A stretch of DNA of 64,000 bases, from IMG/VR virus record IMGVR_UViG_3300005613_000043; one strand, given 5' to 3'. A model generated the notes under the pieces. It made no database searches and had not been told where the DNA came from. It saw only the letters and a list, made by a program, of their open reading frames with translations. Shown here piece after piece: positions 37,443 through 64,000 of the stretch (position 1 is its first letter; each line of letters begins with the position of its first letter). The stretch comes from a virus. Its lineage: Duplodnaviria; Heunggongvirae; Uroviricota; Caudoviricetes. The position numbers and the translations under genes are program-made.

Positions 37443-37599
37443 ATTTCCATCCAATTTTTGATTTCTTCAGGGCTTTCTATGACAATATCATCAGATTCAT
37501 CTTTTTTCTTAGGAATGACTTTTGGTCTCTTCTCTTTTAATATTTCAAATTCTAATAATGTCCGCTGGGGGTTCTTGTCATTCCGATAAGGGTGTTTTT

Positions 37600-37848
37600 T
37601 CATTTAATCCTTTTCCAAATTAATTCATTTAAATCGCATTTAATACATCTTAATCGTTTTTCCTGTAGTTTGCCGTTCCAAATCGAAGAACATAAACAGT
37701 CCGACATAATTAAGAAGCTTTGGTTAATTGTTCCGCATTTAGGACAGGTGAATCTCCCATTAAACCACTCGGTGAATGACTGGTAGGGGTTTCTGCATTT
37801 GACTATCCTCTTCCACAGTTTCATTTCAATCATCTTTTCTAAGCCCAA
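37600..37848 (-). CDS. zinc-finger protein
   Basis: CPKCG...CIKCD motifs. Confidence 0.35.
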   Translation of the reverse strand: MGLEKMIEMKLWKRIVKCRNPYQSFTEWFNGRFTCPKCGTINQSFLIMSDCLCSSIWNGKLQEKRLRCIKCDLNELIWKRIK

Positions 37849-38202
37849 TTCTAAATGTTAATTTGAAAGTATTCGGTTTAATATTATCAAACACCCTTAT
37901 TTCTGACAGTTCCTCATTAAATTTTGGAAATTTTGGGATTATCGCATCAATCCTCCCGTCAACAATCTCCACTTTATCCACTTTGCCGTGTTTTTCTACA
38001 AACTTAATTATTTCTTTTAATTGTTTCTCATATAATTTCATTTCATCACCTCTTCCAAATTAATTCAAAAGTCTTATAATGTTTTCCTGACATGATAATC
38101 TTATTCCCATTCTTAAGGATAATTTCAGCAACACTGTTGTCTGGAATGTTCATAACGTCTTTATTTTTTTTAATGTCTATTTCTTTCATTCCTTTCACCC
38201 AA

Positions 38203-38397
38203 TCACCTCCCAATTAATTTTCCCAGTTTATCTCTAACTTCATCTTTAGTCAAGTGGTAATCATCAATCAATCCCCAGATTTCTTTTCTTGTTAAGGTTA
38301 CTTTGAATGGCTTATCTGGACATTCTTCCTGATTCACTCCTTCTTCATCTGGTAAATCGCAACCACAATATTTACATTTCACCCAATCACCTCGCAT
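38203..38397 (-). CDS. zinc-ribbon small protein
   Basis: CKYCGC...EEC. Confidence 0.35.
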   Translation of the reverse strand: MRGDWVKCKYCGCDLPDEEGVNQEECPDKPFKVTLTRKEIWGLIDDYHLTKDEVRDKLGKLIGR

Positions 38398-39706
38398 AAT
38401 TCACCCACAGCCCCAGCATAGAAACAATCCTCTAAAACATTAACCATACCTGAAATGTTTCTTTCATAATCCCTGTTAACATAGTCGCATACATCATAAG
38501 TTGTGTCCATCTTTTTCGATAAAGGTAAAGGATATTTGTCATACAATACTTTAAAAATAATTAAAATAAAACTAACTATAATGACTAAAATCGAAATAAA
38601 AATTTGAATGGTAATAAAACTTTCTTCTTTCATTTCTTAACCTCTTTTAAATTTAATAATACATCCAAATCCTTTACTTCTAGAACAAAATATTCATTGA
38701 CATTATATCCTTTCTTATTACAATCTTCTATTGCCTTCTTAAGCATTGGATTCTCTCTAATTTGTTTTTTCGTGAATAATTTTTTAGTTATCATTTTAAA
38801 TCATCTTTTTTAGGAAACCATATTATATTTGCATTGTTATGACCACAAGTAAATTCAACAGCAGTTCCCCCATAAACTTTTTTCAAAGGTTTTCCACAAA
38901 CGCTGCATTTTGGATATTTCATAATTTCTTCGATATTCATTTTAATTCCTCTCTTGTTAAATTGAAAAAATATGTAAGTAATGCTAACATACCATATTCT
39001 GCTCCATATCTGAACATTTCATTATTCCAAAATCTTTTCGCTATCTTGCCACGACAATCGATGGGAAACGAATCCAATATGAATGGAACGACTGTATTTG
39101 AACTTTGTATATTTTTAATCCAACATCCAATAACATCTTTCATGGCTGTTCTGTAAGCTAAGATTGTCGCCTTATCACTAATAGTTAAATTTTTCAATTT
39201 CTTTTGTATGTCCTTTTCTAATTCTAATTTCATAGTTCAATCACCTCTGGTTTTCTCCTTTTAGAGCATTGATGCTTTTTAGCATCGTCTTTATTTGGCA
39301 AATATGTATGACATGTTTTGCAATACCAAATCTTAATCACCTTATTTTACGAATTTTTTGATTAATCCAATCAATTCCTTCCCACATTTAAGACAAAATT
39401 CATTTGAGCATACTTCTCTACTTTCATAACGATGTCCTTTCTTTGGGTTTTTAAATTCCTCGATTGTTAAATTCATTCTTGAAGGTTCAATTTCCTTTCT
39501 ACACTTATCGCATACTTTCATTTTCTCACCTTAATATTTCACCCTAAAGTCCTTGTATTTTTTAATATTCTCATAACCACAACTATTACAAACAAAACCA
39601 TATTCATAGTTCCCATCTTTTGGGATTAATAATGGCTTCAACTTGACTGAGTTACAGACTGGACAATGCTTTCTGCCTCCTCTTTTTGAAAATATTTTTG
39701 CATTTT

Positions 39707-39895
39707 TCATGATTTATTCCTTTTCCTCAATAATCTAAGTTCATCCTCTTTTTCAATTGCTTCTTCCATGTCTTTTGCGAACCATAACGAACACCCCATT
39801 AATGTTCCATGTACTCTTGTTTTACATGTCTTTATCCTGAAACATTCGGAACATGGCTTGATTTCTGAATTCATTTTTTTACCCAATACAACCAT
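39707..39895 (-). CDS. zinc-ribbon small protein
   Basis: PCSECF...CKT...GC. Confidence 0.35.
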   Translation of the reverse strand: MVVLGKKMNSEIKPCSECFRIKTCKTRVHGTLMGCSLWFAKDMEEAIEKEDELRLLRKRNKS

Positions 39896-40065
39896 CTTCC
39901 TTTAGCGATTCTTTTGACCAATCCTCTTTTTTCCAATTCGTACAATACATGCTTGACGATGTAATAGTCTATACCTAAAAATCTGGCTATTAATGTGGTT
40001 GGTGTCCTTTCTCTGCCTGATAGAAAAGCAAGGATTTTCTCTTCTTGTTTTTTAAATTCATACAT
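39871..40065 (-). CDS. winged-helix transcriptional regulator (MarR/TrmB-like)
   Basis: EKILAFLSGRERTPTTLIARFLGIDYYIVKHVLYELEKRGLVKR is a classic wHTH; first gene after a 425-bp divergent intergenic region. Confidence 0.5.
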   Translation of the reverse strand: MYEFKKQEEKILAFLSGRERTPTTLIARFLGIDYYIVKHVLYELEKRGLVKRIAKGRWLYWVKK

Positions 40066-40490
40066 ATGTTAATATTATTAGAAATAATAATATAAATAAA
40101 TTTCTATGTTCTAAAAAATATAATTTCATTAATAATTATCATTGAATGAGGTCTCCATTTAATTTGTAATTAAATTATTCTTTTGGTAATACTAAACGAA
40201 TCAAACTTATATCAAGAACACACATGACTCGTTAGCTAAGAGATGGAGTTCAGGAGGATAGACTTAATTATTTCCTGATTCATAGATGATATTCAGTTAT
40301 CCTGTCGTAAGACTCATTCAGGAGTTTTAGAAACAATTCTCTATTTGTTCTGACTTTCAGTAAATGACGCAAAGTTTTGACTTTTTTCATTTCTTCTTTT
40401 GTTAATTTATGGGCTGCAAATAACATTTCCAATATATAAACCTTAAATTATTTAAGTCAGGAATCTAAATTGACTCAGAGGTAAAAATAT
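40066..40490. other. 425-bp AT-rich divergent intergenic region containing GACTCGTTAG / GACTCATTCAGGAG motifs (regulatory hub or origin candidate)
   Basis: no ORF over 40 aa; divergent promoters; GACTCR core shared with the 36-bp repeat arrays at 53.6-55.0 kb. Confidence 0.3.
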
Positions 40491-40727
40491 ATGGCTAAAA
40501 CAGAAAGTTTTGACAATCTTTGGACAAAACTACATCTTGGTAGTTTAAGAGGCAACCCAATATTCAGGGCAGTTTGGAGAGCAGTTAAAGTAGGAGCAGT
40601 TACAGGGGCTTTGTTCTTTTTGGACAAATACGCAGGAATCATACCAGCTAATCTTCAGGTATTGATACCATTGATTGCAACAGCATTAGAGAAAATGTCC
40701 AGAACATTGTATCTTGAAAAGAAATAA
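40491..40727 (+). CDS. small membrane protein
   Basis: ORF track; two hydrophobic segments. Confidence 0.35.
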   Translation: MAKTESFDNLWTKLHLGSLRGNPIFRAVWRAVKVGAVTGALFFLDKYAGIIPANLQVLIPLIATALEKMSRTLYLEKK

Positions 40728-40800
40728 TCAGAACCATACAAACTCAGAGTAAGTAATTATTCAGTTTGGTGGATATTTTTATTATTTCTATCAAACTGAT

Positions 40801-41658
40801 TTATTTAGCTTTAGCATTGAAGAAATTATCTAATCTCTTAGGAACTTTATTTAATCTTTCACGGGCAATATCACAATAATTTTCATTTATTTCGATGCCT
40901 ATGTATCTTCTGTTTAGTTTTTTACATGCTACTGCTGTTGTTCCACTTCCCATGAATGGGTCGAGGATAATATCGTTTTTGTTACTTGAAATTTCAATTA
41001 ATTCTTTTATTAACCATTCTGGTTTTTGTGTTCTATGTTCAGTTCTTTCATTTCCTTGACATATTCCACCTTCAAATAAATTATGTTTTACATAGTTTGT
41101 ATTGAAAAAATATTTTGAAGATTTAGTAGCAAAAGTAAAAAACTCACAACTTGAAACAAAACCTTTTGTAAATAATCTTGGCATTGGGTTAGTTTTATGC
41201 CATACACAAGTAGAACGAACTTTAAACCCACTCTCTTCTAAAATATCTTCAAGATAATTTATTAGATTCCTTGAAAAGAAACAATATAAAGAACCATTTG
41301 GCTTTAATTTATCATAACACAACTTTGTCCATTTTCTATTGAAATCTAAGTATTCTTCTTTCGTTTCAAAAAAATCCCATTTACCAAAATTAAATTTAAC
41401 TGTCTTACTTCTTTTTCCAACTCTTCTCATAGCAGGGTTTCTTACATTTATTCGTTTGACATTCTTTTTTTGACTAATATTATAAGGTGGGTCAGTTAAA
41501 ACCAAATCAATAGAATTATCTTTAAAATGTTTTAATGCCTCAATACAATCAGCATTATAGATAACATTTTCTTCAACTCCTTTCTCTTTTAAATCCTCAA
41601 TTGTTCTTATCAAATTTCTTCCTCCTCTTTTCCAATCAAGTCCATGATTGAAATACAA
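40801..41658 (-). CDS. DNA methyltransferase (N6-adenine/N4-cytosine, beta-class), orphan
   Basis: motif IV LVLTDPPYN precedes motif I FMGSGTTAVA; no cognate nuclease adjacent. Confidence 0.85.
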   Translation of the reverse strand: MYFNHGLDWKRGGRNLIRTIEDLKEKGVEENVIYNADCIEALKHFKDNSIDLVLTDPPYNISQKKNVKRINVRNPAMRRVGKRSKTVKFNFGKWDFFETKEEYLDFNRKWTKLCYDKLKPNGSLYCFFSRNLINYLEDILEESGFKVRSTCVWHKTNPMPRLFTKGFVSSCEFFTFATKSSKYFFNTNYVKHNLFEGGICQGNERTEHRTQKPEWLIKELIEISSNKNDIILDPFMGSGTTAVACKKLNRRYIGIEINENYCDIARERLNKVPKRLDNFFNAKAK

Positions 41659-41904
41659 TCTCTAAGGGCAACCCTGTGCTTTTCCTTTAACTTTCTCATT
41701 TTCTTATCGGCGTATATGGAATCTTTCCCTGTCGCTAATTCATTGATATGCTCAATCATTTTGCTTATTTTCTCATCTACCCTTAAGTTTTCAAATTCTG
41801 AAATTTTGAACCCGCAAATTTTACAATGCAATTTACCACCTCGAAATTTATTTAAGTTACATTATTTATTCTATAATTAATTAAATTTTAATTTGAAGTA
41901 ATTT

Positions 41905-42624
41905 ATGAGGTGTATTGAGGCGAAATACGAACTTTATGAAGATTCTGTAAAATCCCGAATAGTAGAGCTTAGAGCTAAAGGGGATAGCTTTCAGACAATC
42001 GCCAATAAGATTAAAAAAGAATATAACTTTAATTTCTTAGTGGACAAATCAGCCATTTGGAGGGTGCATAACATAGCCATGAAAGATGCGATGGCTGGGG
42101 ACAAGTCTGAAATCATCGCAGGGGGAAAGTCAAAGGCAATGGAGCAAAGGGACAAGACATTCCAGCAAATACGAGGACAGCTCACTAAGATTAATTCCCT
42201 TTTATGGAAACATTTAAACCAGCTTGAAAAAGCCCAAAACATATTAGGCGATGAGTTGAAGAAATGGCTTGAGCAGGCAAAAGACGCCAAAAAAATTGAC
42301 AAGGATTTAATCCACCAGATTCGGACAGGAATATCCCATGATATAGCTAACATTTCAACTATCAGTTCTCAGATAATAAAACAACTTGAAACTCAGGCGA
42401 GGTTAGTTGGGCTACTTACCAAGCCAGCTGAGATTAGAGTGTCGAGAATAGATGTTATTAATCAGATTAACCAATCGTTTAAGAATATTCATAATGAAGG
42501 ATATTTTATGATTAAATGCCTTGATTCCGAATCCAAAAGAAAATTCAGCCTTAAATTCGAGAACAAATCCGCTAAGGATATATTCGATGAATTAATCCGA
42601 ATCGGAATGCTGAAACAATATTAA
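41905..42624 (+). CDS. HTH plus coiled-coil protein (regulator or small-terminase-like), function unknown
   Basis: N-terminal HTH GDSFQTIANKI; long predicted coiled coil. Confidence 0.35.
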   Translation: MRCIEAKYELYEDSVKSRIVELRAKGDSFQTIANKIKKEYNFNFLVDKSAIWRVHNIAMKDAMAGDKSEIIAGGKSKAMEQRDKTFQQIRGQLTKINSLLWKHLNQLEKAQNILGDELKKWLEQAKDAKKIDKDLIHQIRTGISHDIANISTISSQIIKQLETQARLVGLLTKPAEIRVSRIDVINQINQSFKNIHNEGYFMIKCLDSESKRKFSLKFENKSAKDIFDELIRIGMLKQY

Positions 42625-42769
42625 TTCCTTTTAGATAATGTAAAGGTTACCGTATTCGGTGATTTTGATATTACTTCCATATTAGAGTCTAATCCTATTG
42701 AAACTCTCACTTCTTTCACATCAAATTCTTTCATAGTATTTACAAAACTTTTCATCCATATTTCCAATT

Positions 42770-43078
42770 TCATTCTAATCCCCCCTTAACTAATTTTTTA
42801 AAGTCTTTTAGTTTCATCATAATTACATTCGTATGTTGCCCTTTCTTTCTGAATATAAACATTGGTATCTTCTTTTCTTTTTTTGCTTTCTCAACAGTAT
42901 CCATGAATGTGTTCCAAAAAGGTATCTTGCTTCTCATCTTGACTTCGATATAATACTTGTCATGTAGTGTATCTGATTCTGTGTGCCTGCTTAGACTTCC
43001 TGATAACGGTGTTCTAAAAGTTTTAAACTCTTTAGCTATTTTCCGTTCATACGCCTTCCATGTTCCTCTTGAAGTCAT
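42770..43078 (-). CDS. Holliday-junction-resolvase-like PD-(D/E)xK nuclease (Hjc-like)
   Basis: WKAYERKIAKEF...SGSLSRHTESDTLHDKYYIEVKMRSK...MFIFRKKG parallels the Hjc pattern G..ERel...Sg...DliA...iEvK. Confidence 0.5.
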   Translation of the reverse strand: MTSRGTWKAYERKIAKEFKTFRTPLSGSLSRHTESDTLHDKYYIEVKMRSKIPFWNTFMDTVEKAKKEKKIPMFIFRKKGQHTNVIMMKLKDFKKLVKGGLE

Positions 43079-43135
43079 TAAATCATCTTTTCATATTATG
43101 CATTGTCCATCACAACAACCAATAATAAAAAAAAA

Positions 43136-43993
43136 TTATTGTATTTGTAAAAATGGTATTACTCCTCCTGTATATGTTGGCATTTTTCCATCCCATTTTT
43201 GTATTGCTTTTATTTGTGCTTCTACTTTTGCTTTTTCTACTTCAATTTGTCTTAGTTTTATTAAGTCTTCAGTTACTTCTTGTTTTTGTAATCTTAATGA
43301 TTCTGCTTCTGCTTTAGCCTTTTCTATGTTTTGTTGAGCTTCAAACTTAACTCTTTCCAAATTCCATTTCTCTTCTAATGCTCGTTGTTCAGCAGTTACC
43401 TTAGCTTCTATTGCATTATCAAATTCTTCTGAAAATTTAAAATTCACTATATTCACTTCTTCTACCATAATACCGCTATTTGACATATCGCCAAGCTTTG
43501 CAACTAATAATTCTGTCATTGAATCTCTTGTTTGCTTTCTGTTGGTTATTAATTCTTCTGCTGTAAATTTAGCTGTTGATGCTTTCACACTTTCTTCTAT
43601 TGCTGGGTCTATTATCATTTCTTCAATTTCCCTATTTGTTCCTATTGTTTGATAGAGGTAATTAACTTTTCTTGGGTCAAGACGATAGTTTAAAGCTATC
43701 GTTGACATAATGGATTGCAAATCTTTTGAAGCCGAGTCAGCGTCTGTTTGGTATTTCGTAGTTCTGACACTCATTTTTATTATTTTTTCCATTATTGGTA
43801 TTCTAAAATATGGTCCTCCTTCAGATAAAACTTTGTCTTGTACTGCTCCCCATCTCGTCACTACACCCCTATGCCCTGCTGGTATCGTCACTAATGGAAA
43901 ATTAAAAACAACTATCACAAAAACAAGAATAAGTATGCCATATTTCCAAACATATTTCAATAATCTATTCATTTCTATTTCACCTCCTTTCAT
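43136..43993 (-). CDS. SPFH/band-7 (stomatin/prohibitin-like) membrane protein
   Basis: N-terminal TM, HRGVVTRWGAV...EGGPYFRIP core, C-terminal coiled coil AKAEAESLRLQKQ. Confidence 0.8.
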   Translation of the reverse strand: MKGGEIEMNRLLKYVWKYGILILVFVIVVFNFPLVTIPAGHRGVVTRWGAVQDKVLSEGGPYFRIPIMEKIIKMSVRTTKYQTDADSASKDLQSIMSTIALNYRLDPRKVNYLYQTIGTNREIEEMIIDPAIEESVKASTAKFTAEELITNRKQTRDSMTELLVAKLGDMSNSGIMVEEVNIVNFKFSEEFDNAIEAKVTAEQRALEEKWNLERVKFEAQQNIEKAKAEAESLRLQKQEVTEDLIKLRQIEVEKAKVEAQIKAIQKWDGKMPTYTGGVIPFLQIQ

Positions 43994-44025
43994 TTCAAAA
44001 CATTTCCTTAAGTCTGAATTCTTTA

Positions 44026-46740: not shown

Positions 46741-46794
46741 ATCTTCACCTCATTATCGAAAAAATTGCGGGCATCTCAGCCCTAAAAATCAATT

Positions 46795-50136: not shown

Positions 50137-50811
50137 TCATTTCACCAACCTCTTATATCTGTAAAAACTCCTGCGGGAAAGTCCGCTTTCTTCTACAAAA
50201 ATTCTAATTTGTTCTTTAATTGATTTTCCCGAACTAATTAATTCCTGAACTAATAATTTATTCTTATCTACTTGAAGTAAAGGCAATACTAAATTTTTAA
50301 AATCCTTCCCATGCTCACGGGCATATAGGTAACAACTCTCAGCCTTTGCCTGAAGCCTTAAATTAAGATTCTTCGTGCTTGGGCTTGTTTGCTTCTGTAT
50401 ATACTTGAACACTTCAAACCTCTCATCCCTTGTTAGGTTCGGATGATTCACCTTGCAAATCTCAGCCATGATTTTAATGATAGTCTTATAGTCGAATTTA
50501 ATCTCATGAACTAAACACCTGCTTAAGATAGCTTTGAATATCGGGTCTTTTGGTATTTGATTTAATGTAAATATTATCTTGCTCGAAAAAGAAAACTTAG
50601 GCGGGACATTAATCTTGGGACTGCTCGTAAACCAGCTGACCGTTCTAACACCTGTAGTAGACCAAAGTGCTGGTAATAATAAACTATTATGAGAAAGAAC
50701 CCCATTTTCGAGTATAAAATTATGATTATCTTCTACTTCAATATCATACATCGGTATTTTCATTTCGGTTCTTTCTATTTTCAAAATAGATAATTTCTTT
50801 AATTTCATCAT
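50137..50811 (-). CDS. C-terminal fragment gene of the fractured clamp-loader-family AAA+ ATPase: C-split intein (about 42 aa) plus C-extein with sensor-1 and SRC motif
   Basis: starts MYDIEVEDNHNFILENGVLSHN|S (intein blocks F/G); extein KIIFTLNQIPKDPIFKAILSRCLVHEIKF matches the RFC-box pattern fILscN....IiepiqSRC. Confidence 0.7.
   Translation of the reverse strand: MMKLKKLSILKIERTEMKIPMYDIEVEDNHNFILENGVLSHNSLLLPALWSTTGVRTVSWFTSSPKINVPPKFSFSSKIIFTLNQIPKDPIFKAILSRCLVHEIKFDYKTIIKIMAEICKVNHPNLTRDERFEVFKYIQKQTSPSTKNLNLRLQAKAESCYLYAREHGKDFKNLVLPLLQVDKNKLLVQELISSGKSIKEQIRIFVEESGLSRRSFYRYKRLVK
50686..50811 (-). mobile_element. C-terminal half of a split intein
   Basis: block F/G VLSHN followed by the nucleophile Ser. 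Confidence 0.65.
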
Positions 50812-51628
50812 TCTCCTTCACCTCTATCAGACATATATTAATGCCCTGGCTCAATAGGGCAAGCAAATTTTTAGTTTGAATGAAACTAAAATTATCACTC
50901 TCTTTTTTTACTTCTCCTAAATAAAAAATCCCATTTTTAATCAGAATAAAATCGAAAAAACTAATTTTTTCAATTTCAGCAAATCGAATCGGGCAGTTCT
51001 TACAGATATTTAGTGGATAAGTAGGAGGTTTTAAAAGACAAAGATTGGCACAATGGAACGCTTTATGATTTGGTAGTTGGTTAAAATATTCAATTATTTT
51101 AGCATCGGATTTGGCTTGATGTGTTTTTCTATATTTATTCATACCTGGAGGTAATCCTGTTCCTTTTAGGATTTTATAAAGTTTATGAATGCCACATTTA
51201 TATTCAATTCTTAATCGAGTTAGAGTCATTCCTGCCTTAAATTTTTGAATAATTTCAGATGCTGGTAAGGATGGTCTTCTGATTTTATGATATTTGATTC
51301 TACGATGAATAGTCTGTTCACAAACTCCCAATTTTATTGCTATTTGTTTTTGTGAAATGCCTGAAAGATATAAATCTTTTATTTTTTTAATATTAATTTT
51401 AATCCAATTTGGATGATTTTTACCCTCCCAATTAATATATCCACATGAATGAAGAAATTTCATTTCACACGAACGATTGCAAAAATGATGTTTATAAGGT
51501 CGATATTTTCCTTTGGTAATCTTTCCACTTCGTCTTACTGGTAGATTCTTTCCACACCAATCACATTTTAGCCCGTGAATTCTTTTGGCATGTCCCCTAT
51601 GTGATAGTTTTAAATTATTTGAGTTCAT
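50744..51628 (-). CDS. free-standing PD-(D/E)xK-type homing endonuclease inserted between the split-intein halves (third reading frame)
   Basis: N-terminal C4 zinc finger and HTH (ISQKQIAIKLGVCEQTIHRRIK), NUMOD-like GKNHPNW, C-terminal FFDFILIKNGIFYLGEVKK (D...E-V-K); overlaps the upstream gene by 14 nt and the downstream gene by 68 nt. Confidence 0.6.
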   Translation of the reverse strand: MNSNNLKLSHRGHAKRIHGLKCDWCGKNLPVRRSGKITKGKYRPYKHHFCNRSCEMKFLHSCGYINWEGKNHPNWIKINIKKIKDLYLSGISQKQIAIKLGVCEQTIHRRIKYHKIRRPSLPASEIIQKFKAGMTLTRLRIEYKCGIHKLYKILKGTGLPPGMNKYRKTHQAKSDAKIIEYFNQLPNHKAFHCANLCLLKPPTYPLNICKNCPIRFAEIEKISFFDFILIKNGIFYLGEVKKESDNFSFIQTKNLLALLSQGINICLIEVKENDEIKEIIYFENRKNRNENTDV

Positions 51629-53609
51629 TCATATCAATATATATTATATGGTCATCATCATTTAAATCTTTTGCTCTTTTTAATTCAATCAAATCATTTT
51701 TCTTGACAAACCATCGATGTTCGGGAGAACATTCAATTATTCCTTTTTTCGTATGAATTCTAATTACGGGTTTCAAACCTACATGTTTACTTTTAAATGG
51801 TTTTAATTCGATTTTCTTTAATCTAAAATTATATGAAGGAAGATATTCATCTCCCAGTAAATCAGATATTTCTTTTATTCCTTTTGAGGTAATAATTTTT
51901 GTATAAAATGGGAGACAGACGGCTTCTTTGGAATGGACAATTTCTGTAGTGTCATCGAAAAAAAGGACATAGCCGTCTTTATGTTGGTATAGGAACTCAA
52001 ATAGCCTCAGTGGTGTTCGATGTCCTGAGTGGTAGATATAAGGCATTTTTGACTTCTCCAAGATGTTTAATATCTGAAAAGTATTATGAATAAAAATATC
52101 ATTTGCAACGAAATTATGGAAAGCTTTTAATACTGTAAAATCATAAACTTTAAACTTTCCTGTTTTCTTCTTGATTGAAACAATTTTGTCCCAAAAAATT
52201 TCCGAATGTTTTAAATCAGTATCTTGAATTGATTTTCTGGTAAAATGTCCCCCACGTGAAGGGTCCCTAATTATGGGTATAATATCAACATTAGTGTTTG
52301 ATTTTTTGGTCTTATAAGACTCAACCATTTTTCCTAATTTGAGAAACTTTCTTCGTAATGGAATTCTGATATTTTCATAAAATTTGATAATATTATCTTT
52401 TCCAAGTACTGATGTAGTCCAATATATTTGGTTATATTTTTTGTTTAACTTCCCGAACACAGTAGATAAAATTCCAAATCTTAACAAAAGATGTTGAATT
52501 TGTCTTGCCAACAATCTTGACTTAGACGTATATTCGACTTTCCCTTTTCCGATATAACCATCTCCCGCATAAAGATAACCAAGGAATTCTGAAACTTGAA
52601 ATAGATTTAATGTCATTATCTCGTTTGGAATAAATTTTTCTCCTGATAATTTCTTTGCTAAATTTAATTTCCTGAGATATTTTCCTACTGCATTTGAACC
52701 TGTTTTTTCTTTCTTTTTGGCAATATGATAAGAATATTTTTTCATTTTTCTAAGTCGTAAATGTTTATCAAATCGCTTGACTAAACACTCAAATTCCTTA
52801 AGAAGCTCTGGTTCACTTGTAGAAAAAAGAAAGTGTCCCGATTTCGACATACACCCTTCAGAAATCATAAGTGCAAGAAGTTTTACCTTATGTTCGCTAA
52901 GAACTCGTTTGGGGTTAATATGATAAATTCTGGGTGTTGCGATAAATCCACCTTCTTTTAAAGTATCGGCTTGTTTCCAGCCATCAATGGTAAAAAATGG
53001 ATGTTCTGGCGTAACGGATATATCCCTTCCACTTCGTAAGGTGAATTTTAAAATTTCATTTGATTCTAATTCCTTCATATCGGTTATTCGAGTTTTTTTA
53101 ATCTTTAATTTTGTATTCAAACCAAAAAGTTGAGATTTTCTTTTCTTTTTGAAGATATTTAAATCCTTTTCAAATATTAATCTTCCATCTCCTCCAACTA
53201 AAAATGTATCTTTATCGAAGAATATGCACTTCCCAATGCCGACTTGACCAAAAACAATCATTGAATTAGTGAATCCCTCAACCACCATCTGGGTGTATTC
53301 ATGTAAAATTTTGTAGAACCTTTCAATCTTAGGCGTCATGGATTCTTCTATTAACCTGATTGATTCTTTCTGGGTGAGTTCCAATGATTCCTGCTCTTTC
53401 TTGAAACACTCTTGTATCTCAGATTGAATCTTCCCCATGTCTAATTTCTCTTTAAATGCTTCTGGGTATTTCCCCTTTATTGTTGAAAGGTTACTCGCAA
53501 TTGGTAGGTTTGAGTCCCAATTATCTGAAAAGGGAAACTTATCGAATGATTCTGGATTCTTCAGCATTTTCTTTAATATGTTTTCTGAAAATGAACTATA
53601 GCTAACCAT
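51615..53609 (-). CDS. N-terminal fragment gene of the fractured clamp-loader-family AAA+ ATPase: N-extein, complete LAGLIDADG intein in the P-loop, Walker B segment, then N-split intein
   Basis: VFGQVGIGK|C...FIHN|TFQILN: Walker A interrupted by a 382-aa intein; YVLFFDD Walker B; C-terminal 100 aa CLPFYTKIITSKG...ECSPEHRWF are intein blocks A/B ending at the stop. Confidence 0.75.
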   Translation of the reverse strand: MVSYSSFSENILKKMLKNPESFDKFPFSDNWDSNLPIASNLSTIKGKYPEAFKEKLDMGKIQSEIQECFKKEQESLELTQKESIRLIEESMTPKIERFYKILHEYTQMVVEGFTNSMIVFGQVGIGKCIFFDKDTFLVGGDGRLIFEKDLNIFKKKRKSQLFGLNTKLKIKKTRITDMKELESNEILKFTLRSGRDISVTPEHPFFTIDGWKQADTLKEGGFIATPRIYHINPKRVLSEHKVKLLALMISEGCMSKSGHFLFSTSEPELLKEFECLVKRFDKHLRLRKMKKYSYHIAKKKEKTGSNAVGKYLRKLNLAKKLSGEKFIPNEIMTLNLFQVSEFLGYLYAGDGYIGKGKVEYTSKSRLLARQIQHLLLRFGILSTVFGKLNKKYNQIYWTTSVLGKDNIIKFYENIRIPLRRKFLKLGKMVESYKTKKSNTNVDIIPIIRDPSRGGHFTRKSIQDTDLKHSEIFWDKIVSIKKKTGKFKVYDFTVLKAFHNFVANDIFIHNTFQILNILEKSKMPYIYHSGHRTPLRLFEFLYQHKDGYVLFFDDTTEIVHSKEAVCLPFYTKIITSKGIKEISDLLGDEYLPSYNFRLKKIELKPFKSKHVGLKPVIRIHTKKGIIECSPEHRWFVKKNDLIELKRAKDLNDDDHIIYIDMNELK
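51618..51917 (-). mobile_element. N-terminal half of a split intein (about 100 aa) at the 3' end of the upstream fragment gene
   Basis: begins at Cys after ...VHSKEAV; blocks A and B present; the ORF stops with no C-terminal splice block. Confidence 0.65.
52083..53228 (-). mobile_element. complete intein with LAGLIDADG endonuclease domain inserted after GK of the Walker A motif
   Basis: starts Cys, block B SVTPEHPFF, LAGLIDADG motifs LLALMISEGCM and LGYLYAGDGYI, block F/G VYDFTV...HNFVANDIFIHN followed by Thr. Confidence 0.8.
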
Positions 53610-53663
53610 AATTTAACCTCATTATTAAAATCGTAATTTGTTTTCGGTTTTTATTTCTATACT

Positions 53664-53845
53664 GACTCGTATGCTTATCATGAGTTTTACAATAGGCAAT
53701 GACTCGCAATTATCAAATGTTCTATTCTTGTTTTGGCTCGCAGACACAGTTTGGTTTTTCACTTGAACTTTGGCTCGTAATCGTCTAATGGATTTTATTC
53801 ACCTGGCGACTCGTAATTTTCTATTGGTTTTCATCCTAACCTTGA
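53664..53845. repeat. array of five roughly 36-bp degenerate direct repeats with core GRCTCG(Y)AA
   Basis: units start at 53664, 53701, 53735, 53772 and 53808 (gactcgtatg..., gactcgcaatt..., ggctcgcagac..., ggctcgtaatc..., gactcgtaattt...). Confidence 0.7.
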
Positions 53846-53846
53846 C

Positions 53847-54743
53847 TTACTTTTTGTCAACCCAATCCAAGTATTCAACCCCTTCTGGAGTCTCAATGAA
53901 TGGAGGCTCAATGTCGTGCCCCATCAATCCTGGATACGGGTCAGTAATGGGTAGATTGTTTAATTTTCTGAACACCTTCCAGTAGTTAGTTAGGAATATT
54001 CTCATTGTCATATTCTTAGCGGTCAGATGGACTTTAAGTTTCTTTGTTCCCTTTTCTGGTTCAGGGCATCTCTCATCGTATTCCCTTTTCTTCCTCAGGT
54101 AGGTAGCATAGTATTGCCCTTTAGCTTTCATTAGCTGGGTCAATATCTTAAACATCAATGTTTTCAGTCTTGGGTTGAAATGAGTCGCTTCTCCTCTTTT
54201 GAGTCTTGAATCGGGTATTATACCGCAGTATTTGTGAAGCTTGCTCGGATTTGTAGCTACTGTCATTACAGGAAAATATTTTACCCTTATCCATCTGTCT
54301 TTTAAGTTTTCTTCAACCACTTCTCCATATTCTGGTATTTCAAGCGAAATCGTTTCGTTCTTTTTCTTCTGTTTGTAAACATCATCTTTTACTTTTTTAG
54401 TTATCCCTTGTATCTTAAATTCTCTCGGCTTTGCCAGCCAAGCCAATAGATACCCTGACATTATTGGTCCTATTCCCTTTATTTTCTTAAGATATTTAAC
54501 GTATATTTCTTCCTTTTTTACTTCCTTTCCGATTTCTTTGCTTAACATAACTTCCAGTCCCTGCTCTTTTGCCTCTAATTCCCTGAAGAATGCTTCGTTC
54601 TTAAGCTCCTCTGGCAAACTTAGAAGCCTGTTCCCGCTTCTAATTCTGTCCTTCTGATAGTCCACTAAACTCTCCACTAAAAATCTTAGTTTATCCATAG
54701 TATCACCTCTGATTATTTTAAAAAAAACATGACGTATTTTCAA
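53847..54743 (-). CDS. IS110-family C-terminal (Transposase_20 / HhH) domain protein lacking the N-terminal DEDD/RuvC-like catalytic domain
   Basis: coiled-coil LVESLVDYQKDRIRSGNRLLSL; HhH KIKGIGPIMSGYLLAWLAKPREFK; KYCGIIPDSRLKRGEATHFNPRLKTLMFKI...YYATYLRKKRE...KVHLTAKNMTMRIFLTNYW parallels the Pfam Transposase_20 consensus; only about 85 aa precede the HhH. Confidence 0.5.
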   Translation of the reverse strand: MKIRHVFFKIIRGDTMDKLRFLVESLVDYQKDRIRSGNRLLSLPEELKNEAFFRELEAKEQGLEVMLSKEIGKEVKKEEIYVKYLKKIKGIGPIMSGYLLAWLAKPREFKIQGITKKVKDDVYKQKKKNETISLEIPEYGEVVEENLKDRWIRVKYFPVMTVATNPSKLHKYCGIIPDSRLKRGEATHFNPRLKTLMFKILTQLMKAKGQYYATYLRKKREYDERCPEPEKGTKKLKVHLTAKNMTMRIFLTNYWKVFRKLNNLPITDPYPGLMGHDIEPPFIETPEGVEYLDWVDKK

Positions 54744-54764
54744 TTTGGTTTATAAAATTGTTGT

Positions 54765-54960
54765 GACTCGTAAATTTCTAAATGGTTTTTATTCAACTAT
54801 TGACTCGCAAATTATAGTTGAACTATATTTTACTTTTTGGCTCGTAAATCTCTTCTGGATTATATTCATACTACGACTCATATCTATTACATGAGTTTTA
54901 AAGTTTCATTGATTCGCAACCTTCTTTTGTATTTTACACAATATTTGGCTATCGCATAAG
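54765..54960. repeat. array of six roughly 36-bp degenerate direct repeats, same family and orientation as 53664..53845
   Basis: units start at 54765, 54802, 54839, 54875, 54911 and 54947; unit 54875 (gactcatatctattacatgagtttta) closely resembles unit 53664 (gactcgtatgcttatcatgagtttta). Confidence 0.7.
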
Positions 54961-54980
54961 AAAAAAATAAAAAGAAGGCT

Positions 54981-55963: not shown

Positions 55964-56176
55964 TCAAACAGCATCAATCTTGCTAAATTCAGTTAGACAT
56001 TTGGGACACAATATACGCTCCTTATTGTTAAAATAAAATAAAAGATAGTCCTGGTTTTTTGAACCGCATTCTGGACATATCCTTTTGATTTTCACGAATT
56101 TCCAATCATCCCAATTACACTTTTTCGACTTTAATTTCGATTTCTGTGACATGAATTTCTCTATTTTCTTTTTCAA
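55964..56176 (-). CDS. zinc-ribbon small protein
   Basis: CPECGSKNQ...CPKCLTEF. Confidence 0.35.
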   Translation of the reverse strand: MKKKIEKFMSQKSKLKSKKCNWDDWKFVKIKRICPECGSKNQDYLLFYFNNKERILCPKCLTEFSKIDAV

Positions 56177-56438
56177 AGGAATTTGTCTTAATCTTCACAT
56201 CTGAAATCTTAGCCATTCCTTCTCTTTCTAAGATAGCAGCCACATCGCATGCCCTTGAAGTTGCCCTTCCCCTTGCGAGTATTGACACTTTTCCTTTATT
56301 TTTCGGGTCTTTTAACTGCCTAAGGGTTGCGAGCTGGTATACCGACAAATCCTTTCCTGTCATAGTTTTTGTTTCAGGGTCGAATCTCCGAGAGCTGATA
56401 TACACACAGCCATCTTTTAGTTTTCCTTTATTTTCCAT
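56115..56438 (-). CDS. albA: Alba-family DNA/RNA-binding protein
   Basis: GKVSILARGRATSRACDVAAILEREGMAKISDVKIKTNSFEKENREIHVTEIEIKVEK aligns to the Alba core eivIkArGraIskAVdvaEi....ikigte...g....vs.ieivl.k. Confidence 0.65.
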   Translation of the reverse strand: MENKGKLKDGCVYISSRRFDPETKTMTGKDLSVYQLATLRQLKDPKNKGKVSILARGRATSRACDVAAILEREGMAKISDVKIKTNSFEKENREIHVTEIEIKVEKV

Positions 56439-56451
56439 TGTTTTTACCTCC

Positions 56452-57285
56452 TTATATTACCTGTCCACTCATTGAATGAAATACATGTTCTGAGTCTGCT
56501 CTTATTTTATCTTGCCTCAATTTATTTGTTTCGGTTGTAGCTTTTGGTTTGAACTGAGAAGTGTAAACTGTTCCTTCCTCAGCTTTCTTAATCTTTTCAT
56601 CAAGCTTGTTTTCAATTTTTTTTAATTTTAATTGGTCTTTTTTTGTTAATCCTCTAAGAGTAGAATGTATAGCCTGATGACAATTTCTACATAAGACTAT
56701 CAAATTAGAAATAGAATTGTTTAAGTGATTATTATCTCTATGATGAATTTCTAAGGAGCTAATATACTTTTTATATCCACATAACATACATTCAACGCTT
56801 GGGGTAATCCTCAAAATTTGTTTCCTTTTTATTAATCCTTTTTTTTCGCTGATTTCATTTCTATGTTTTCTTGCCCATAATCTGCTTCTTTTTCTAATTC
56901 TTTCACTATGACGTTCTTTGTATTGTTTATAATATATTTTCCTTTTTTCAGGATTCTTTCTATACCATTCTTTAATATATTCTTTTCTGTATTTTTTTGA
57001 ATTAAATCTGTTACGTCTTTTACGAGGAATATTGTTTTTAGCTAATAGTTTTCTGATTGGTTCTTTTGTAACTCCATACTGCTCTCCAATTTCTCTTGTA
57101 TTAAATCCATCCACTGTATATCTTCTAATTATATCATTCGTAAAATCCTTTAATAATGGTTTTTTCAGACTCTTAGAATCAGGATACCTATGGCTAATAT
57201 AGAAACCACTAATTCCAAGAGTTTTCTGCACATTAGCCATAGATACCAAATTAGTATTGATTTCTGGATATATAAAACTTTTCAT
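56452..57285 (-). CDS. HNH homing endonuclease with N-terminal HTH repeats
   Basis: LEIHHRDNNHLNNSISNLIVLCRNCHQAIH. Confidence 0.75.
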   Translation of the reverse strand: MKSFIYPEINTNLVSMANVQKTLGISGFYISHRYPDSKSLKKPLLKDFTNDIIRRYTVDGFNTREIGEQYGVTKEPIRKLLAKNNIPRKRRNRFNSKKYRKEYIKEWYRKNPEKRKIYYKQYKERHSERIRKRSRLWARKHRNEISEKKGLIKRKQILRITPSVECMLCGYKKYISSLEIHHRDNNHLNNSISNLIVLCRNCHQAIHSTLRGLTKKDQLKLKKIENKLDEKIKKAEEGTVYTSQFKPKATTETNKLRQDKIRADSEHVFHSMSGQVI

Positions 57286-59931: not shown

Positions 59932-60132
59932 TCACCTCACCGTTCTGTTAATTGCATCTAAAACCTCTATGAAATTACAATCTACCTTATCGCAAATCAT
60001 ATCTAAAATTTCAAAAGCATTTTTATTGTCTACATTTAGTAGGGTATGTTTTAGTCTCAAATATCCTGTCTTTGCGAATTTTCTTTTAGTTTTATGTTCT
60101 TCTTCGATTAGTTCTATTTGTTCAATTTTCAT
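59932..60132 (-). CDS. 66-aa Cys-containing protein, paralog of 49611..49811
   Basis: protein and nucleotide similarity to the 49.6-kb copy. Confidence 0.5.
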   Translation of the reverse strand: MKIEQIELIEEEHKTKRKFAKTGYLRLKHTLLNVDNKNAFEILDMICDKVDCNFIEVLDAINRTVR

Positions 60133-60147
60133 TCAATCACCAAATTA

Positions 60148-60453
60148 TTATTTTTCTACGCTATCATCAAACACTTCCAATAAAACATTTAATCCAATTA
60201 CAAATTCCTTACCCTTGTCAGTTATGATAAACTTATTCTCAATATGCTCAATCAGTCCATGCTTAATCAGGACATTGGCGTGCTTATACAGTTCCGAACT
60301 GCCTATGACTACATTAAATTGCGATGCTATGTTCTTTATTGAGCCGTATCCCAAGAAGGGATTATCGCTTAATGCGTATAGGATTAAAATTCTCTTTTTA
60401 CTCGCACAAATATCAGCTATGTTTTTCAAATATTCAAATTCTTTATCATCCAT
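60148..60453 (-). CDS. winged-helix transcriptional regulator (ArsR/TrmB-like)
   Basis: ASKKRILILYALSDNPFLGYGSIKNIASQF...ELYKHANVLIKHGLIE. Confidence 0.55.
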   Translation of the reverse strand: MDDKEFEYLKNIADICASKKRILILYALSDNPFLGYGSIKNIASQFNVVIGSSELYKHANVLIKHGLIEHIENKFIITDKGKEFVIGLNVLLEVFDDSVEK

Positions 60454-60724
60454 CCAATCACCTGTTGTTTGTTATAAATAACCATAAAGTTGAAATTAGG
60501 AGGTAAATCAAACAAATCAGAAAGATTAAAATCTCATTTTTAACGCATTTTAAGGATATGATTGCTGTCATCCATAATCCTATCCAAATTAAATAACGCC
60601 TTAATTCATTCCAATAGAATTTCTTTCCCATCATGTTCCTCTTCCACATCTTCCTTATCCTGATTAAGTTCCACTTGAAGCGAACCCTTAACATGAATAA
60701 ATGTAGTTTATCCCGAATTTTCAT

Positions 60725-61171
60725 TTAATCAACTTTATTTTTCATTTCTTTTTCAACTGCCATCATATCACAAAAATGTAATTTAATTGCTAACTTAGTG
60801 TGTTCACCGTTGAATGGGGAAAACCCCCCATGATGGAATTGAATGGCATTTAATTCCTCTTCGGTTAATCTGATTCCATACTCATAAAGCATAACTATAG
60901 TATGGAAATGATGGTCAACATCTGGTTTTCTATGCTTAATCTCGTTTCCATCCCAATAATATCTTCTTGCCTTGCCTAAATCATGAATCAATGCCATGAA
61001 ATGCAACTGGTCATCATCTGGAAAATATTTCTTAGCAAAATATAATGTGTTTTCCATATGTTGAATCAGTCCCCATTTAATATTATTATGATGTTTTCTA
61101 CATGCTGGTAAATCAGATATTTCATCTTTAAAATGTTTTATTATTTTCCTTGCCGATTCTTCATTTCTCAT
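60725..61171 (-). CDS. HD-domain phosphohydrolase
   Basis: H...HMENTLY, ALIHDLGK (HD), additional downstream His/Asp residues. Confidence 0.68.
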   Translation of the reverse strand: MRNEESARKIIKHFKDEISDLPACRKHHNNIKWGLIQHMENTLYFAKKYFPDDDQLHFMALIHDLGKARRYYWDGNEIKHRKPDVDHHFHTIVMLYEYGIRLTEEELNAIQFHHGGFSPFNGEHTKLAIKLHFCDMMAVEKEMKNKVD

Positions 61172-61746
61172 TTTAAATCCTCCATGAATCTTTTAAGTCT
61201 TTCAAAACCATGCTCATAGTCAACTTCTGGGAGATAGTGTGTCGGGGCTAAATCATGCCTTTCTAAATCTATGTAATGTTCAAACTTATGCTTGAATCCG
61301 TCATCTTCCATTCTCCTTACATCGTCACGGCTAATTCTATACGGCATGTGAGCAAGTGTTTCCCCCATTTGAATCATATCGGAATTATAATTAGTTCTAT
61401 ATCCTGTCAACGACAAACCCTCCATGGATTTTAAATGGTCGGGCGGTATTGGCTGATGTGAACATAAGAGAAAAAACTCATCACCAGATAATTCTGACGC
61501 TTTTGAAACACTTTGCCTAAATGTTGGCTCCCTGTCCAAAAAATCATAATCAAACCCGACCAAGAAAGGGATTAATGCTTCTCTTAATTCTGGTCTTGTG
61601 ACTATCAATAAATCATAACCATGCAAGGAATCTAATGTATAACTTATTAATGGTCTTCCCCCTATTTCCATAAACATTTTTGGTTTCATCGGGTCAGTGA
61701 TTCCCATTCTTTTTCCAAATCCCCCTGCCATTACCGCAACTATCAT
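61168..61746 (-). CDS. nucleotidyltransferase (sugar-phosphate / MobA-like NTP-transferase fold)
   Basis: N-terminal IVAVMAGGFGKRMG glycine-rich loop; 4-nt overlap with the HD gene. Confidence 0.6.
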   Translation of the reverse strand: MIVAVMAGGFGKRMGITDPMKPKMFMEIGGRPLISYTLDSLHGYDLLIVTRPELREALIPFLVGFDYDFLDREPTFRQSVSKASELSGDEFFLLCSHQPIPPDHLKSMEGLSLTGYRTNYNSDMIQMGETLAHMPYRISRDDVRRMEDDGFKHKFEHYIDLERHDLAPTHYLPEVDYEHGFERLKRFMEDLK

Positions 61747-62456
61747 TCAAATCCCTTTAAATTCTCAATTCATATGTCAATTTATCAGCTTTTTCTCATT
61801 CTATTATTGAACCATCTCTTGAAAGATAGCCTGACATCGTATTCCTCATCAACATGTTTTATGATTATCTTCTCCAAGTTTCTAATCTTATTCGAGAGAA
61901 TGTCTAATTTTCTTTCAACATTTTTTAACCTAACATTAGCCTCTTTGCTTCTCAGTTCGTATTCCATCTGCTTCTTCTCTAACAACTGCCTTAAGGATAG
62001 CTTATTGTAGTCTTTGATTAATTCCTCGTCTGATTTAACCTTTCGCAACTTTTCAGGAACGCTCCAGATTGCCATTTAAACACCTGATTTTTCATATTTC
62101 TCGGTGAATTTTTTAAGCAGAAACGCTCTTAATTTCGCATATTTAAGATACTCAGTTGGATTTTTAATCGCCAAAACAATTTCCCCTTTGGCTTGATTTA
62201 AATGAGAATTTAGAGTATGCTTTATAAAGTCGTTTAATTCTTTTTCCTTTAAATTTAACATATCTTCACCTATAGTTAGAATAGTAGAATTGCTTTTGAA
62301 CCTTAGTAAGTTTACTCCACTTCTCGTAAGCGTCTTTTAATTTCTTTTCAGTATTAATCAAATCATCCTCTTCAAGAAAGCCAAGCTTGTCTAAAGTATC
62401 GAGGTCTGCGGTGTGAAACCACCTGTCCATTTCAACTTCTCTTATCCTCCTGTCCA

Positions 62457-62840
62457 TCAGCAATCCCTTCCATACTCTTTATATTTTTCCCCATAAGTTT
62501 CTTTGGGTATAACGATTCCTTTGGTTGATTCTACCATGATTTCTGGAAAGCCAGTAATTACAATCCAAGCGTGATTAGAGCCGTCGGTTTCGTTAAACTC
62601 TTCGTAATCCCCATGAACATAGCAGGACTTATACCCTGCTTCGTTAAGCCTTCTTTGCAGTTCCCAGCTGTAATGACGGCATACGTAGTCTTTACTTGGC
62701 GGGTGTTCTTCGAGCAGATTCTCAGCTATTAAGTTAAAGTTAAAAGGACTGTCTGGACACTCAATATGAGTAATAGCATAAAAATACATTAGGGTTATTC
62801 CTAATGCGAATCCAATTATAAAACCGATTGTAAATTTCAT
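62457..62840 (-). CDS. membrane-anchored transglutaminase-core-like cysteine peptidase candidate
   Basis: N-terminal TM; YVCRHYSWELQRRLNEAGYKSCYVHG...GSNHAWIV fits the Transglut_core pattern GvCrdfA.l...llRa.GIpAR.V.G.....HaWvev. Confidence 0.4.
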   Translation of the reverse strand: MKFTIGFIIGFALGITLMYFYAITHIECPDSPFNFNLIAENLLEEHPPSKDYVCRHYSWELQRRLNEAGYKSCYVHGDYEEFNETDGSNHAWIVITGFPEIMVESTKGIVIPKETYGEKYKEYGRDC

Positions 62841-64000
62841 ATAATCATAATAAATTAAAACAAAAAAACCTATTGCAGTTTTAATTTACTTTTTATTACC
62901 CCTGACCCATATTTTATTGCAAGTCCAGACTAATCCTACGCCCATACACCAGTATTGAACAAGTATTGACGCTCCTTGGATTATATCTGTTACCCCTTTA
63001 ACTAATTCATACACGCTTAGCAAATTATCACCTCCTTTAACTACCTCGACCACGACCTCGACCAACGCCCCTCACTCAAAAAACAAATATTCATAAAATC
63101 CTCTCTTTTATCTAACATATACAACTAAAACAGTCAAACTTATATATTTTAATCTATGTGTTTTAGAATCAGTAAACAAATAAGACAAGCTAAACCCAAA
63201 TAAACTGTCCAGAAGATGTCGTAAAATAACTGACTTGGAAAGGTCGGATAGAGCGGATGATAAGATTCAATACCAAATAGTTCAACTAAATGAAGGCTAA
63301 AGTCCCAAAATATCATTAATAAGACTACTGTTACAGTTCTTATTTTCATTTAATCACTTTAATTCTTTAAAAACAAAATGACCACAATGCAAACATTGGT
63401 ATACTTTATAATCGTTTATCCAAATATCCCATTTTATATTTTTCATTCTTTTTTTACAATTTGGGCATTTCATACACTCATCCAAACACTTTAATGTAAT
63501 TCTTACAAGCTTTAAAAGACTTTGATTTAAACATAACTGTATAGTTTTTAATCACTTCATAAATTGGATTTTTTCGCTTTAAAAGCCCTTCTGTTCTATT
63601 CCAATAGTATTCATTTACTATTATGCTAAATATCCCATTATCGAAAATTATTTTAAATCCCATTTAATCAAACTCTTTTAAGACGTCCAACAAAATAGCT
63701 CTTATTTCTTCTTTTTTGATTTTTTTTGCTACCCTACCTATTAGCTCTGTTGCCTCGTCTTCTAATTCTCTGTGTGTGTAAATTGTTATGTCTTTTTTGT
63801 GTGTATTATCTCTTTTCCAAACCATAATTACCACAACCTCCTTATTTCTTTCTCTAAATCAAACCTATTGATTTCTACACTTTCTTGGTCTATTATCCAT
63901 TGTTTTAATTTTTCTATCCTTGAAACCATCTGCCATAACCTCTTTAAGATAAATTCCGAACAAGACACGAACGCCCATGAACGAAATGAACGGCACGAGT

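Follow-up and report, generated by a model that had tools for sequence, protein, structure and literature searches.

A tailed virus genome from an undescribed sediment lineage, with an Alba gene and a sequon-rich fibre protein, whose host is most likely an archaeon

The tailed viruses that most resemble the genome described here are the Altiarchaeum virus Altivir_8_HURL (BK059162), ANMV-1 (KP703175) and Halogranum tailed virus 1, which have in common a head module with an HK97-type major capsid protein (MCP), a large terminase subunit (TerL) and a portal protein. A second point of comparison is virus-encoded Alba, first reported in 2025 for DPANN-associated viruses from acid mine drainage in which the gene stands beside that of an aspartyl-tRNA synthetase (PMC12647753); genome maps of haloarchaeal and nanohaloarchaeal viruses likewise carry Alba labels (bioRxiv 10.1101/2025.02.15.638363). 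Tailed viruses of uncultivated DPANN, Asgard and sediment archaea are very poorly sampled, and the assignment of their hosts is the main obstacle. Here, we analyse the IMG/VR virus record IMGVR_UViG_3300005613_000043, a stretch of 64,000 nucleotides (hereafter the window) which encodes both a head module of this kind and an Alba homologue. We conclude that a tailed double-stranded DNA virus is represented here by most or all of its genome, that it belongs to an undescribed sediment lineage and that it most likely infects an archaeon. We put the probability of this reading at roughly 0.78; the archaeal host, taken by itself, is about as probable. These findings extend a known category, the tailed viruses of Archaea, and do not overturn current views.

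The window consists of a rightward gene block (~0.5-37.4 kb) and a leftward one (~37.4-64 kb), and its GC content ranges from 29 to 39% along its length, with about 33% overall. Its membership of the tailed viruses (Caudoviricetes) follows from three plus-strand genes, TerL (4613-6007; phrog_38 1e-45, Pfam Terminase_6N and Terminase_6C above cutoff), a Mu-like portal (6432-7685; Pfam Portal_Mu 25.9 bits against a cutoff of 23.9, phrog_9232) and an HK97-like MCP (11248-12411; major-head PHROGs 2.6e-11, Phage_capsid_3 23.1 bits against a cutoff of 23). The same strand encodes a protein resembling ASCH and LigD phosphoesterase (LigD-PE) domains (7682-9457) and a Lys/Glu-rich, scaffold-like head protein (10123-11247), which has homologues in all close relatives. 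When the portal, LigD-PE-like, scaffold-like and MCP sequences were concatenated into one query, matches were confined to two records among the 50,697 deposited for phages and archaeal viruses, ANMV-1 and the Altiarchaeum virus, and both are archaeal. Indeed, the MCP has a single deposited match, the MCP of the Altiarchaeum virus (27% identity, 4e-9). The resemblance to the archaeal tailed viruses is nevertheless distant, with identities of just 24-32% and few common genes: three for the Altiarchaeum virus (MCP 27%, TerL 26%) and two for ANMV-1, whose gene annotated 'ATP-dependent DNA ligase' is 32% identical to the 7682-9457 product. The replication genes differ too: MCM and others are found in those viruses, and the window has a D5_N/DUF5906 P4-family primase-helicase instead (18917-20446, minus strand; Pfam, and NCBIfam primase_Cterm at 168.5 bits against a cutoff of 108.7). 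TerL by itself does not discriminate between hosts, since its tblastn matches among deposited phages (20-26% identity) span bacterial and archaeal viruses alike. Two further concatenated-protein queries were dominated by the primase and the methyltransferase, and then by the SPFH protein, and a query with the tail module matched deposited phages through LamG domains only.

The preliminary description of this DNA had expected largely novel gene space, and this is borne out: a search of 5.8 billion proteins gave TerL just 15 relatives, every one of them metagenomic. Megablast of 25 kb of the window against the 50,697 deposited records gave no DNA match. A TerL profile recovered six loci when one genome per GTDB species was scanned, and 75 contigs in IMG/VR, about 20 of which share 4-8 head-module genes with the window. 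In a neighbour-joining tree of TerL, the window forms a subclade with relatives L016, L004, L002, L019, L020 and L024, adjoining the L022/L023/L025/L032 group and L011, and the pattern of gene sharing agrees with this placement. For the environment of the relatives, one metagenome could be traced in the literature through its sample identifier: a relative whose TerL is 51% identical comes from sample 3300022188, a hydrothermal vent metagenome of the Guaymas Basin. The lineage is an undescribed and thinly sampled one from anoxic and hydrothermal sediment metagenomes. It lies far from every classified family, as MCP identity to any deposited virus is at most 27%, and judged by its protein sequences it differs from the archaeal tailed viruses named above at family level or higher.

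Which kind of cell does such a virus infect? The first alternative to an archaeon is a bacterial host, for example an episymbiotic member of the CPR/Patescibacteria, a low-GC Firmicute or one of the Chlamydiae, in which case Alba, an Sm-like protein and a sequon-rich fibre would have been acquired horizontally or be coincidental. We consider this unlikely, and the tRNAs of the relatives are one reason. No tRNA gene was predicted within the 64-kb window, and an Rfam search of it returned no RNA family. Three relatives carry tRNA arrays, with 24 genes in L011, 8 in L023 and 6 in L025; they share 6-8 genes with the window (8 for L023 and 7 for L025, at 30-33% TerL identity). In bacteria, tRNA-Tyr has a long variable arm and G1:C72, tRNA-Gly has U73, and tRNA-Trp has A1:U72 and G73. 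The tRNA-Tyr of L023 and L025 has a short variable arm, C1:G72 and G37, the tRNA-Gly of all three relatives has A73, and the tRNA-Trp of L011 has G1:C72 and A73, each of these being of the archaeal type and at odds with a bacterial host. The test is able to discriminate, since more distant loci examined as controls gave bacterial-type elements (G73 in the tRNA-Trp of L014, U73 in the tRNA-Gly of L048). The 24-gene array of L011 (7157-9959) is located directly upstream of TerL; it includes a tRNA-Ile(TAT), and Met, Cys and Tyr tRNAs were not predicted in it.

The genome bins of relatives give signals in both directions. Of the three top-ranking relatives in the genome scan, two come from metagenome-assembled genomes (MAGs) of Woesearchaeota and Parvarchaeota (L011 and L012; DPANN). 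A bacterial host could draw on a weak TerL match in a Pacebacteria MAG and on the bin of the closest relative of all, to which we return below. The Woesearchaeota-binned contig of L011 has purely viral content, and so has the contig binned as Chlamydiae, on which no cellular genes were found, so that MAG binning is weak evidence either way. We therefore rejected bins as decisive host evidence. By this binning and by analogy, our leading host candidate, which is a guess, would be a DPANN archaeon of low GC content resembling Woesearchaeota or Parvarchaeota.

The homologue of Alba, a chromatin and RNA-binding protein, that was announced in the preliminary description is confirmed (56115-56438, minus strand). 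It passes the Pfam cutoff (PF01918, 35.8 bits against 25, covering profile positions 8-63 of 66), and its closest structures in the PDB are archaeal Alba proteins, with AF1956 at the top (3.4e-8) followed by four chains named Alba (1e-4 to 5e-3). The NCBIfam AlbA models matched at 1.6e-11, but the scores for TIGR00285 and NF003088, 44.2 and 40.4 bits, fall short of the cutoffs of 90 and 88, so that this Alba is divergent and virus-specific, as opposed to a host gene copied recently. Homologues with 84% (L091) and 65% identity are present in related metagenomic contigs. Among prokaryotes, Alba is essentially an archaeal protein; none was found among the 50,697 deposited phage records, which counts against a bacterial host. 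The distant relatives L044 (3975-4184) and L045 (1484-1771) have an Alba of a second lineage, placed between TerL and portal, and from these sequences the virus group appears to have gained, or retained, Alba on more than one occasion.

The Alba-bearing viruses published so far, which we compared with the window by their descriptions, differ from it in coming from acid mine drainage or hypersaline sites and not from hydrothermal sediment. In the acid mine drainage viruses Alba is next to an aspartyl-tRNA synthetase gene (PMC12647753), while the window has no aminoacyl-tRNA synthetase gene; in the close relative L091 a 440-residue asparaginyl-tRNA synthetase (465-1787) is encoded ~3 kb away from Alba. 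The first PDB match of this synthetase was 1X54, with 250 bits against 180 for the second entry. 1X54 is the enzyme of Pyrococcus horikoshii; NCBIfam gave the synthetase no domain-of-life assignment, and its archaeal affinity is hinted at by the PDB ranking only. Beside the window's Alba gene is inserted an HNH endonuclease gene (56452-57285, minus strand; Pfam HNH 28.8 bits, cutoff 21.4). A 65-residue Sm-like protein (20443-20640, minus strand; Pfam LSM 6.1e-5) is encoded immediately upstream of the primase-helicase; its best PDB matches, Sm-like proteins of Pyrococcus (E = 0.04), come marginally ahead of Hfq (0.47) and are weak evidence.

The second diagnostic feature lies in the fibre genes. 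The preliminary description had pointed to sequon-rich secreted proteins, and this holds for the 1043-residue protein with a CBM96 (DNRLRE-type) module, a putative receptor-binding protein (32297-35428, plus strand; CBM96 1.3e-21). It contains 60 N-x-S/T sequons where 18.9 are expected from its own composition (z = 11), a number not reached in any of 1000 shuffles, and the excess persists when residues are shuffled inside 30-residue windows. N-x-T accounts for nearly the whole excess (47 against 11 expected). S/T-x-N, the mirror motif, shows no enrichment (23 against 19), and an acidic residue stands at position -2 in 8 of the 60 sequons, which is the background frequency. Four CBM96 homologues (P0020-P0023) show a like pattern, with z = 8-9. 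Archaeal AglB glycosylates the plain N-x-S/T sequon, whereas bacterial PglB needs an extended one. The excess, being directional, biased to N-x-T and without preference for D/E at -2, is thus of the AglB type and not of the PglB type, which again disagrees with a bacterial host. These data show that selection acts on the putative receptor-binding protein in favour of plain N-x-S/T sequons. Among the markers listed earlier, only Alba and the sequon enrichment are diagnostic for an archaeal host. The general claim that the markers point to an archaeon is upheld in its conclusion, mainly through the tRNAs of the relatives, the structural matches and the DPANN bins, but most of the markers themselves are not specific to archaea.

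Two further genes, both 5' of TerL and without a family match, show a milder excess of N-x-S/T and no enrichment of the mirror motif: 512-1381 has 9 sequons against 2.8 expected (z = 4.2) and 1735-3369 has 18 against 9 (z = 3.4). Their products may be further glycosylated virion or envelope-interacting proteins.

The signals around the genes were scanned as well. Sigma-70-like promoters were at or under shuffle expectation in each of three segments (65 against 75, 77 against 82.5 and 76 against 92.6) and hairpin terminators were at shuffle expectation in the three segments scanned; with no peptidoglycan hydrolase among the ORFs scanned, this adds to the case against a bacterial host. The 13-mer AAATTTATTTATA is promoter-like and occurs in three exact copies, against 0.04 expected (6010-6022 and 20873-20885 on the plus strand, 40091-40103 on the minus strand), two of which extend to 19 identical bases. 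It is found at -35 to -23 and at -38 to -26 from the ATGs of two genes devoid of a Shine-Dalgarno (SD) sequence, its TATA-like part TTTATTTATA being centred at about -27 from the gene starting at 6045 and about -30 from the minus-strand gene starting at 40065. This spacing matches an archaeal BRE/TATA promoter with the geometry of leaderless transcripts, and would be consistent with an archaeal host. Similarly, gene 10123 had been singled out as SD-less with a TTATAA box; both features are present, and the box lies at -31 to -26 relative to the ATG. This box is held within a 22-nt element, CTTATAAGTTCAACCCTTATGT, of which there are two exact copies (10091-10112 and 22744-22765; 0 expected). 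The second copy directly adjoins the free-standing LAGLIDADG gene at its 5' end, and the pair may represent a duplicated promoter or a homing footprint. The 22-nt element was not found in any relative examined, and neither it nor the 13-mer showed informative conservation in relatives. The copy of AAATTTATTTATA at 20873 falls inside a long TTG-start ORF (20600-21574). The true start of this ORF is probably 3' of the element, since an AGGTGAT SD follows it and relatives align only over about the last 200-230 residues.

Several observations weigh against an archaeal host, and most of them speak for a bacterial one. The closest genome-binned TerL (46% identity, N-terminal 200 residues only) comes from a Guaymas MAG labelled 'Chlamydiae bacterium', where it lies at the end of a contig of 9.8 kb. 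The SPFH protein is closest to bacteriophage prohibitins (Burkholderia, Acinetobacter and other phages), with up to 43% identity, and the primase and methyltransferase likewise have phage genes as their nearest matches, thousands of bacterial phages being hit. Such primases are common in phages of both domains. A GGAGGTGA-type SD precedes most genes and was the top upstream k-mer in an unbiased enrichment, which recovered the SD alone; such strong SD use is in keeping with many archaea and with Firmicutes-like bacteria alike. Upstream of genes there is no enrichment of TTTAWATA, the canonical archaeal TATA box, and a bacterial -10 box is another possible reading of the AT-rich promoter-like elements. 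Relative L011 encodes YopX, a family typical of phages, and TIGR-Tas systems, of which the window has a candidate, are common in phages and CPR bacteria. Furthermore, the host link of the window genome is indirect, as it has no tRNA of its own, the relatives with archaeal-type tRNAs share only 26-33% TerL identity with it, and the TerL tree is a neighbour-joining tree without bootstraps. Set against these points are the archaeal-type tRNAs, the match of the structural module to archaeal viruses only, the Alba gene and the AglB-type sequons, and we retain the archaeal host.

Another possibility is more specific about the archaeon. The preliminary description proposed a low-GC methanogen, and in its fullest form this would be a pseudomurein-walled member of the Methanobacteriales, lysed by a Pei-like endoisopeptidase of transglutaminase fold encoded at 62457-62840. 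A GC content of 33% and strong SD use fit Methanobrevibacter or Methanosphaera. The adhesin-like fibres would also be in keeping with it, namely the CBM96 protein and the beta-helix and LamG tail fibre or adhesin encoded just before it (30227-32293, plus strand; Laminin_G_3 4e-23, Beta_helix 1.6e-16, NosD 3.4e-10). The domains named for these proteins are indeed present, but they have no diagnostic value for the host. The 62457-62840 product (127 residues, minus strand) has a C..HAW..E pattern, read by eye, behind a membrane anchor. It has no match in Pfam, PHROG, NCBIfam or the PDB, and a single-sequence AlphaFold model was too poor for a fold search (pLDDT 61); the transglutaminase reading is not confirmed. 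Moreover, neither peptidoglycan- or pseudomurein-directed domains nor Peptidase_C71/Pei or other cell-wall hydrolase domains were found in any ORF scanned, deposited records showed no DNA similarity to the window and no methanogen virus was among the protein matches, while those relatives whose origin is identifiable are from hydrothermal sediment of Guaymas and are grouped with DPANN and not with methanogen MAGs. A methanogen host finds no support in these data and seems to us improbable.

With an archaeal host, the virus would replicate in an archaeal cell and be transcribed by the archaeal RNA polymerase. Some leaderless transcripts would start from the BRE/TATA-like elements ~27-30 nt upstream of SD-less start codons, and most genes would be translated by way of their strong GGAGGTGA-type SD. 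The AglB oligosaccharyltransferase of the host would N-glycosylate the secreted fibre protein, and the viral Alba, possibly together with the Sm-like protein, would coat or remodel viral DNA or RNA during infection. More tentatively, at odds that we place slightly short of even, the window may stand for a new family-level lineage of tailed viruses of uncultivated low-GC sediment archaea, possibly DPANN, equipped with its own Alba and perhaps an Sm-like protein, with a receptor-binding protein that bears many N-glycans, and with a two-array TIGR-Tas system; if so, TIGR-Tas perhaps serves competition between viruses or host takeover. The window and some 20 related contigs form a coherent lineage with a workable host signal that is independent of tools, resting on viral tRNA identity elements and AglB-type sequons, and both tests could be applied to other orphan viral contigs. 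The genome adds an example of virus-encoded Alba, and in what is probably an archaeal tailed virus it contains a candidate TIGR-Tas system and a gene fractured by a split intein.

TIGR-Tas systems have a Nop-domain protein, Tas, and arrays of ~36-nt units, each with two repeats and two spacers of ~9 nt (Faure et al. 2025, PMC12045711). The window combines a Tas-like gene with arrays of 36-37-nt units, which lie on both sides of the gene. The protein is Tas-like (53847-54743, minus strand; NF052498 2.6e-28, phrog_4285 1.2e-19), its 99.5 bits falling 0.5 bit short of the NCBIfam cutoff of 100 for this family of RNA-guided endonucleases. The upstream TIGR-like array (54744-54965, minus strand) has ~6 units with CGAG[TC]C boxes at 54847, 54810 and 54773 that alternate with (A/G)TAAAA(C/T)C boxes, and the downstream array (53625-53825, minus strand; repeat family D14) has ~5-6 units with boxes at 53816, 53780, 53709 and 53672. 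A unit reads TT(A/G)CGAG(T/C)C, ~9 variable nucleotides, (A/G)T(A/G)AAAA(C/T)C and again ~9 variable nucleotides, array boundaries and spacers having been read by eye and not by TIGRFinder. The small ORFs 53625-53762 (minus strand) and 54745-54894 (plus strand) are array DNA and not genes. The locus may be a mobile insertion, since it is missing from the syntenic relative L092.

Next to the TIGR-like arrays is an ATPase gene in pieces. Dassa and colleagues reportedly described in 2009 'fractured genes', in which the halves of a split intein are parted by the gene of a free-standing homing endonuclease. The window ATPase has this arrangement, all on the minus strand: an ORF with the N-terminal two thirds of a P-loop ATPase, which has intein 1 within the Walker A motif and ends with the N-half of intein 2 (51615-53609), then a zinc-finger and HTH ORF (50744-51628; HTH_23, HTH_38 and zf-FCS, all under cutoff), which probably encodes the free-standing homing endonuclease, and finally an ORF that begins with the C-half of intein 2 and continues into the ATPase C-extein with its SRC motif (50137-50811; Intein_splicing C-terminal block 4.6e-6, junction ...VLSHN|SLLL). 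It differs from the fractured genes in holding, in addition, a conventional LAGLIDADG intein in the P-loop (intein 1: Intein_splicing 1.7e-30, LAGLIDADG_3 2.3e-21; insertion point GQVGIGK|C), and trans-splicing is a prediction here. The fractured-gene reading is validated by relative L092, which encodes an uninterrupted, intein-free homologue of 365 residues (2063-3160) with 76% identity to residues 1-127 and 55% to residues 489-582 of the 51615-53609 product, and 82% to that of 50137-50811. The gene had been described as an RFC-like SRC box with a P-loop intein. The intein, the Walker motifs and the SRC box are there (GQVGIGK(T) after removal of the intein, VLFFDD, and LSRC in the C-extein, identified by eye), but the RFC or clamp-loader identity is not recovered by profiles: the spliced 364-residue extein matches phrog_1250, of unknown function, at 1.5e-24 and the clamp-loader family phrog_168 at just 1.4e-5, and nothing in Pfam or the PDB.

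The remaining markers are less telling. Winged helix-turn-helix (wHTH) proteins, LAGLIDADG endonucleases, inteins and beta-helix fibres are present in both domains. The free-standing LAGLIDADG endonuclease, which also has an HTH, is above the Pfam cutoff as anticipated (21913-22740, minus strand; LAGLIDADG_1 28.1 bits, cutoff 23.1). Two genes had been listed as TrmB/ArsR-like wHTH regulators. The first, a small protein whose gene has no SD within 20 nt upstream (39871-40065, minus strand), is a wHTH protein above cutoff (FaeA-like, 25.9 bits against 20.7) with TrmB under cutoff (22.5 against 25.6), and the second (60148-60453) gave a sub-cutoff HTH only. In the proposed SPFH/NfeD membrane pair, the SPFH/Band7 prohibitin-like membrane protein is secure (43136-43993, minus strand; Band_7 2.6e-31), but the NfeD family was not found among the small ORFs. 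The Hjc-like resolvase was not confirmed: the small PD-(D/E)xK nuclease, a putative junction resolvase (42770-43078, minus strand), matches the phage family PDDEXK_15 below cutoff (21.3 bits against 27) and the PHROG resolvase families phrog_244 (1.1e-8) and phrog_2002 (1.3e-6), and no Hjc family in Pfam, no PDB entry and no NCBIfam model. Its ER...SGS...D...IEVK pattern was read by eye, and a single-sequence AlphaFold model (pLDDT 56) was too poor for a fold search. The N6/N4 DNA methyltransferase is encoded nearby (40801-41658, minus strand; Pfam N6_N4_Mtase 1.6e-55).

Finally, the ligase-related gene is an unusual conserved occupant of the head module. The resemblance of the 7682-9457 product to the stand-alone LigD-PE domains that had been suggested is visible, but it stays under the cutoffs of both Pfam (LigD_N 4.1e-5, 24.1 bits against 31.1) and NCBIfam (LigD_PE_dom 6e-10), as does its ASCH domain (5.6e-4). 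The position of the gene beside the portal gene is conserved across the lineage; indeed, large ligase-related genes lie directly 3' of the portal throughout (7682-10071 in the window, 12892-16449 in L004 and 3200-5800 in L009), and the counterpart in L004 combines a metallo-beta-lactamase domain with a DNA-ligase adenylation domain.

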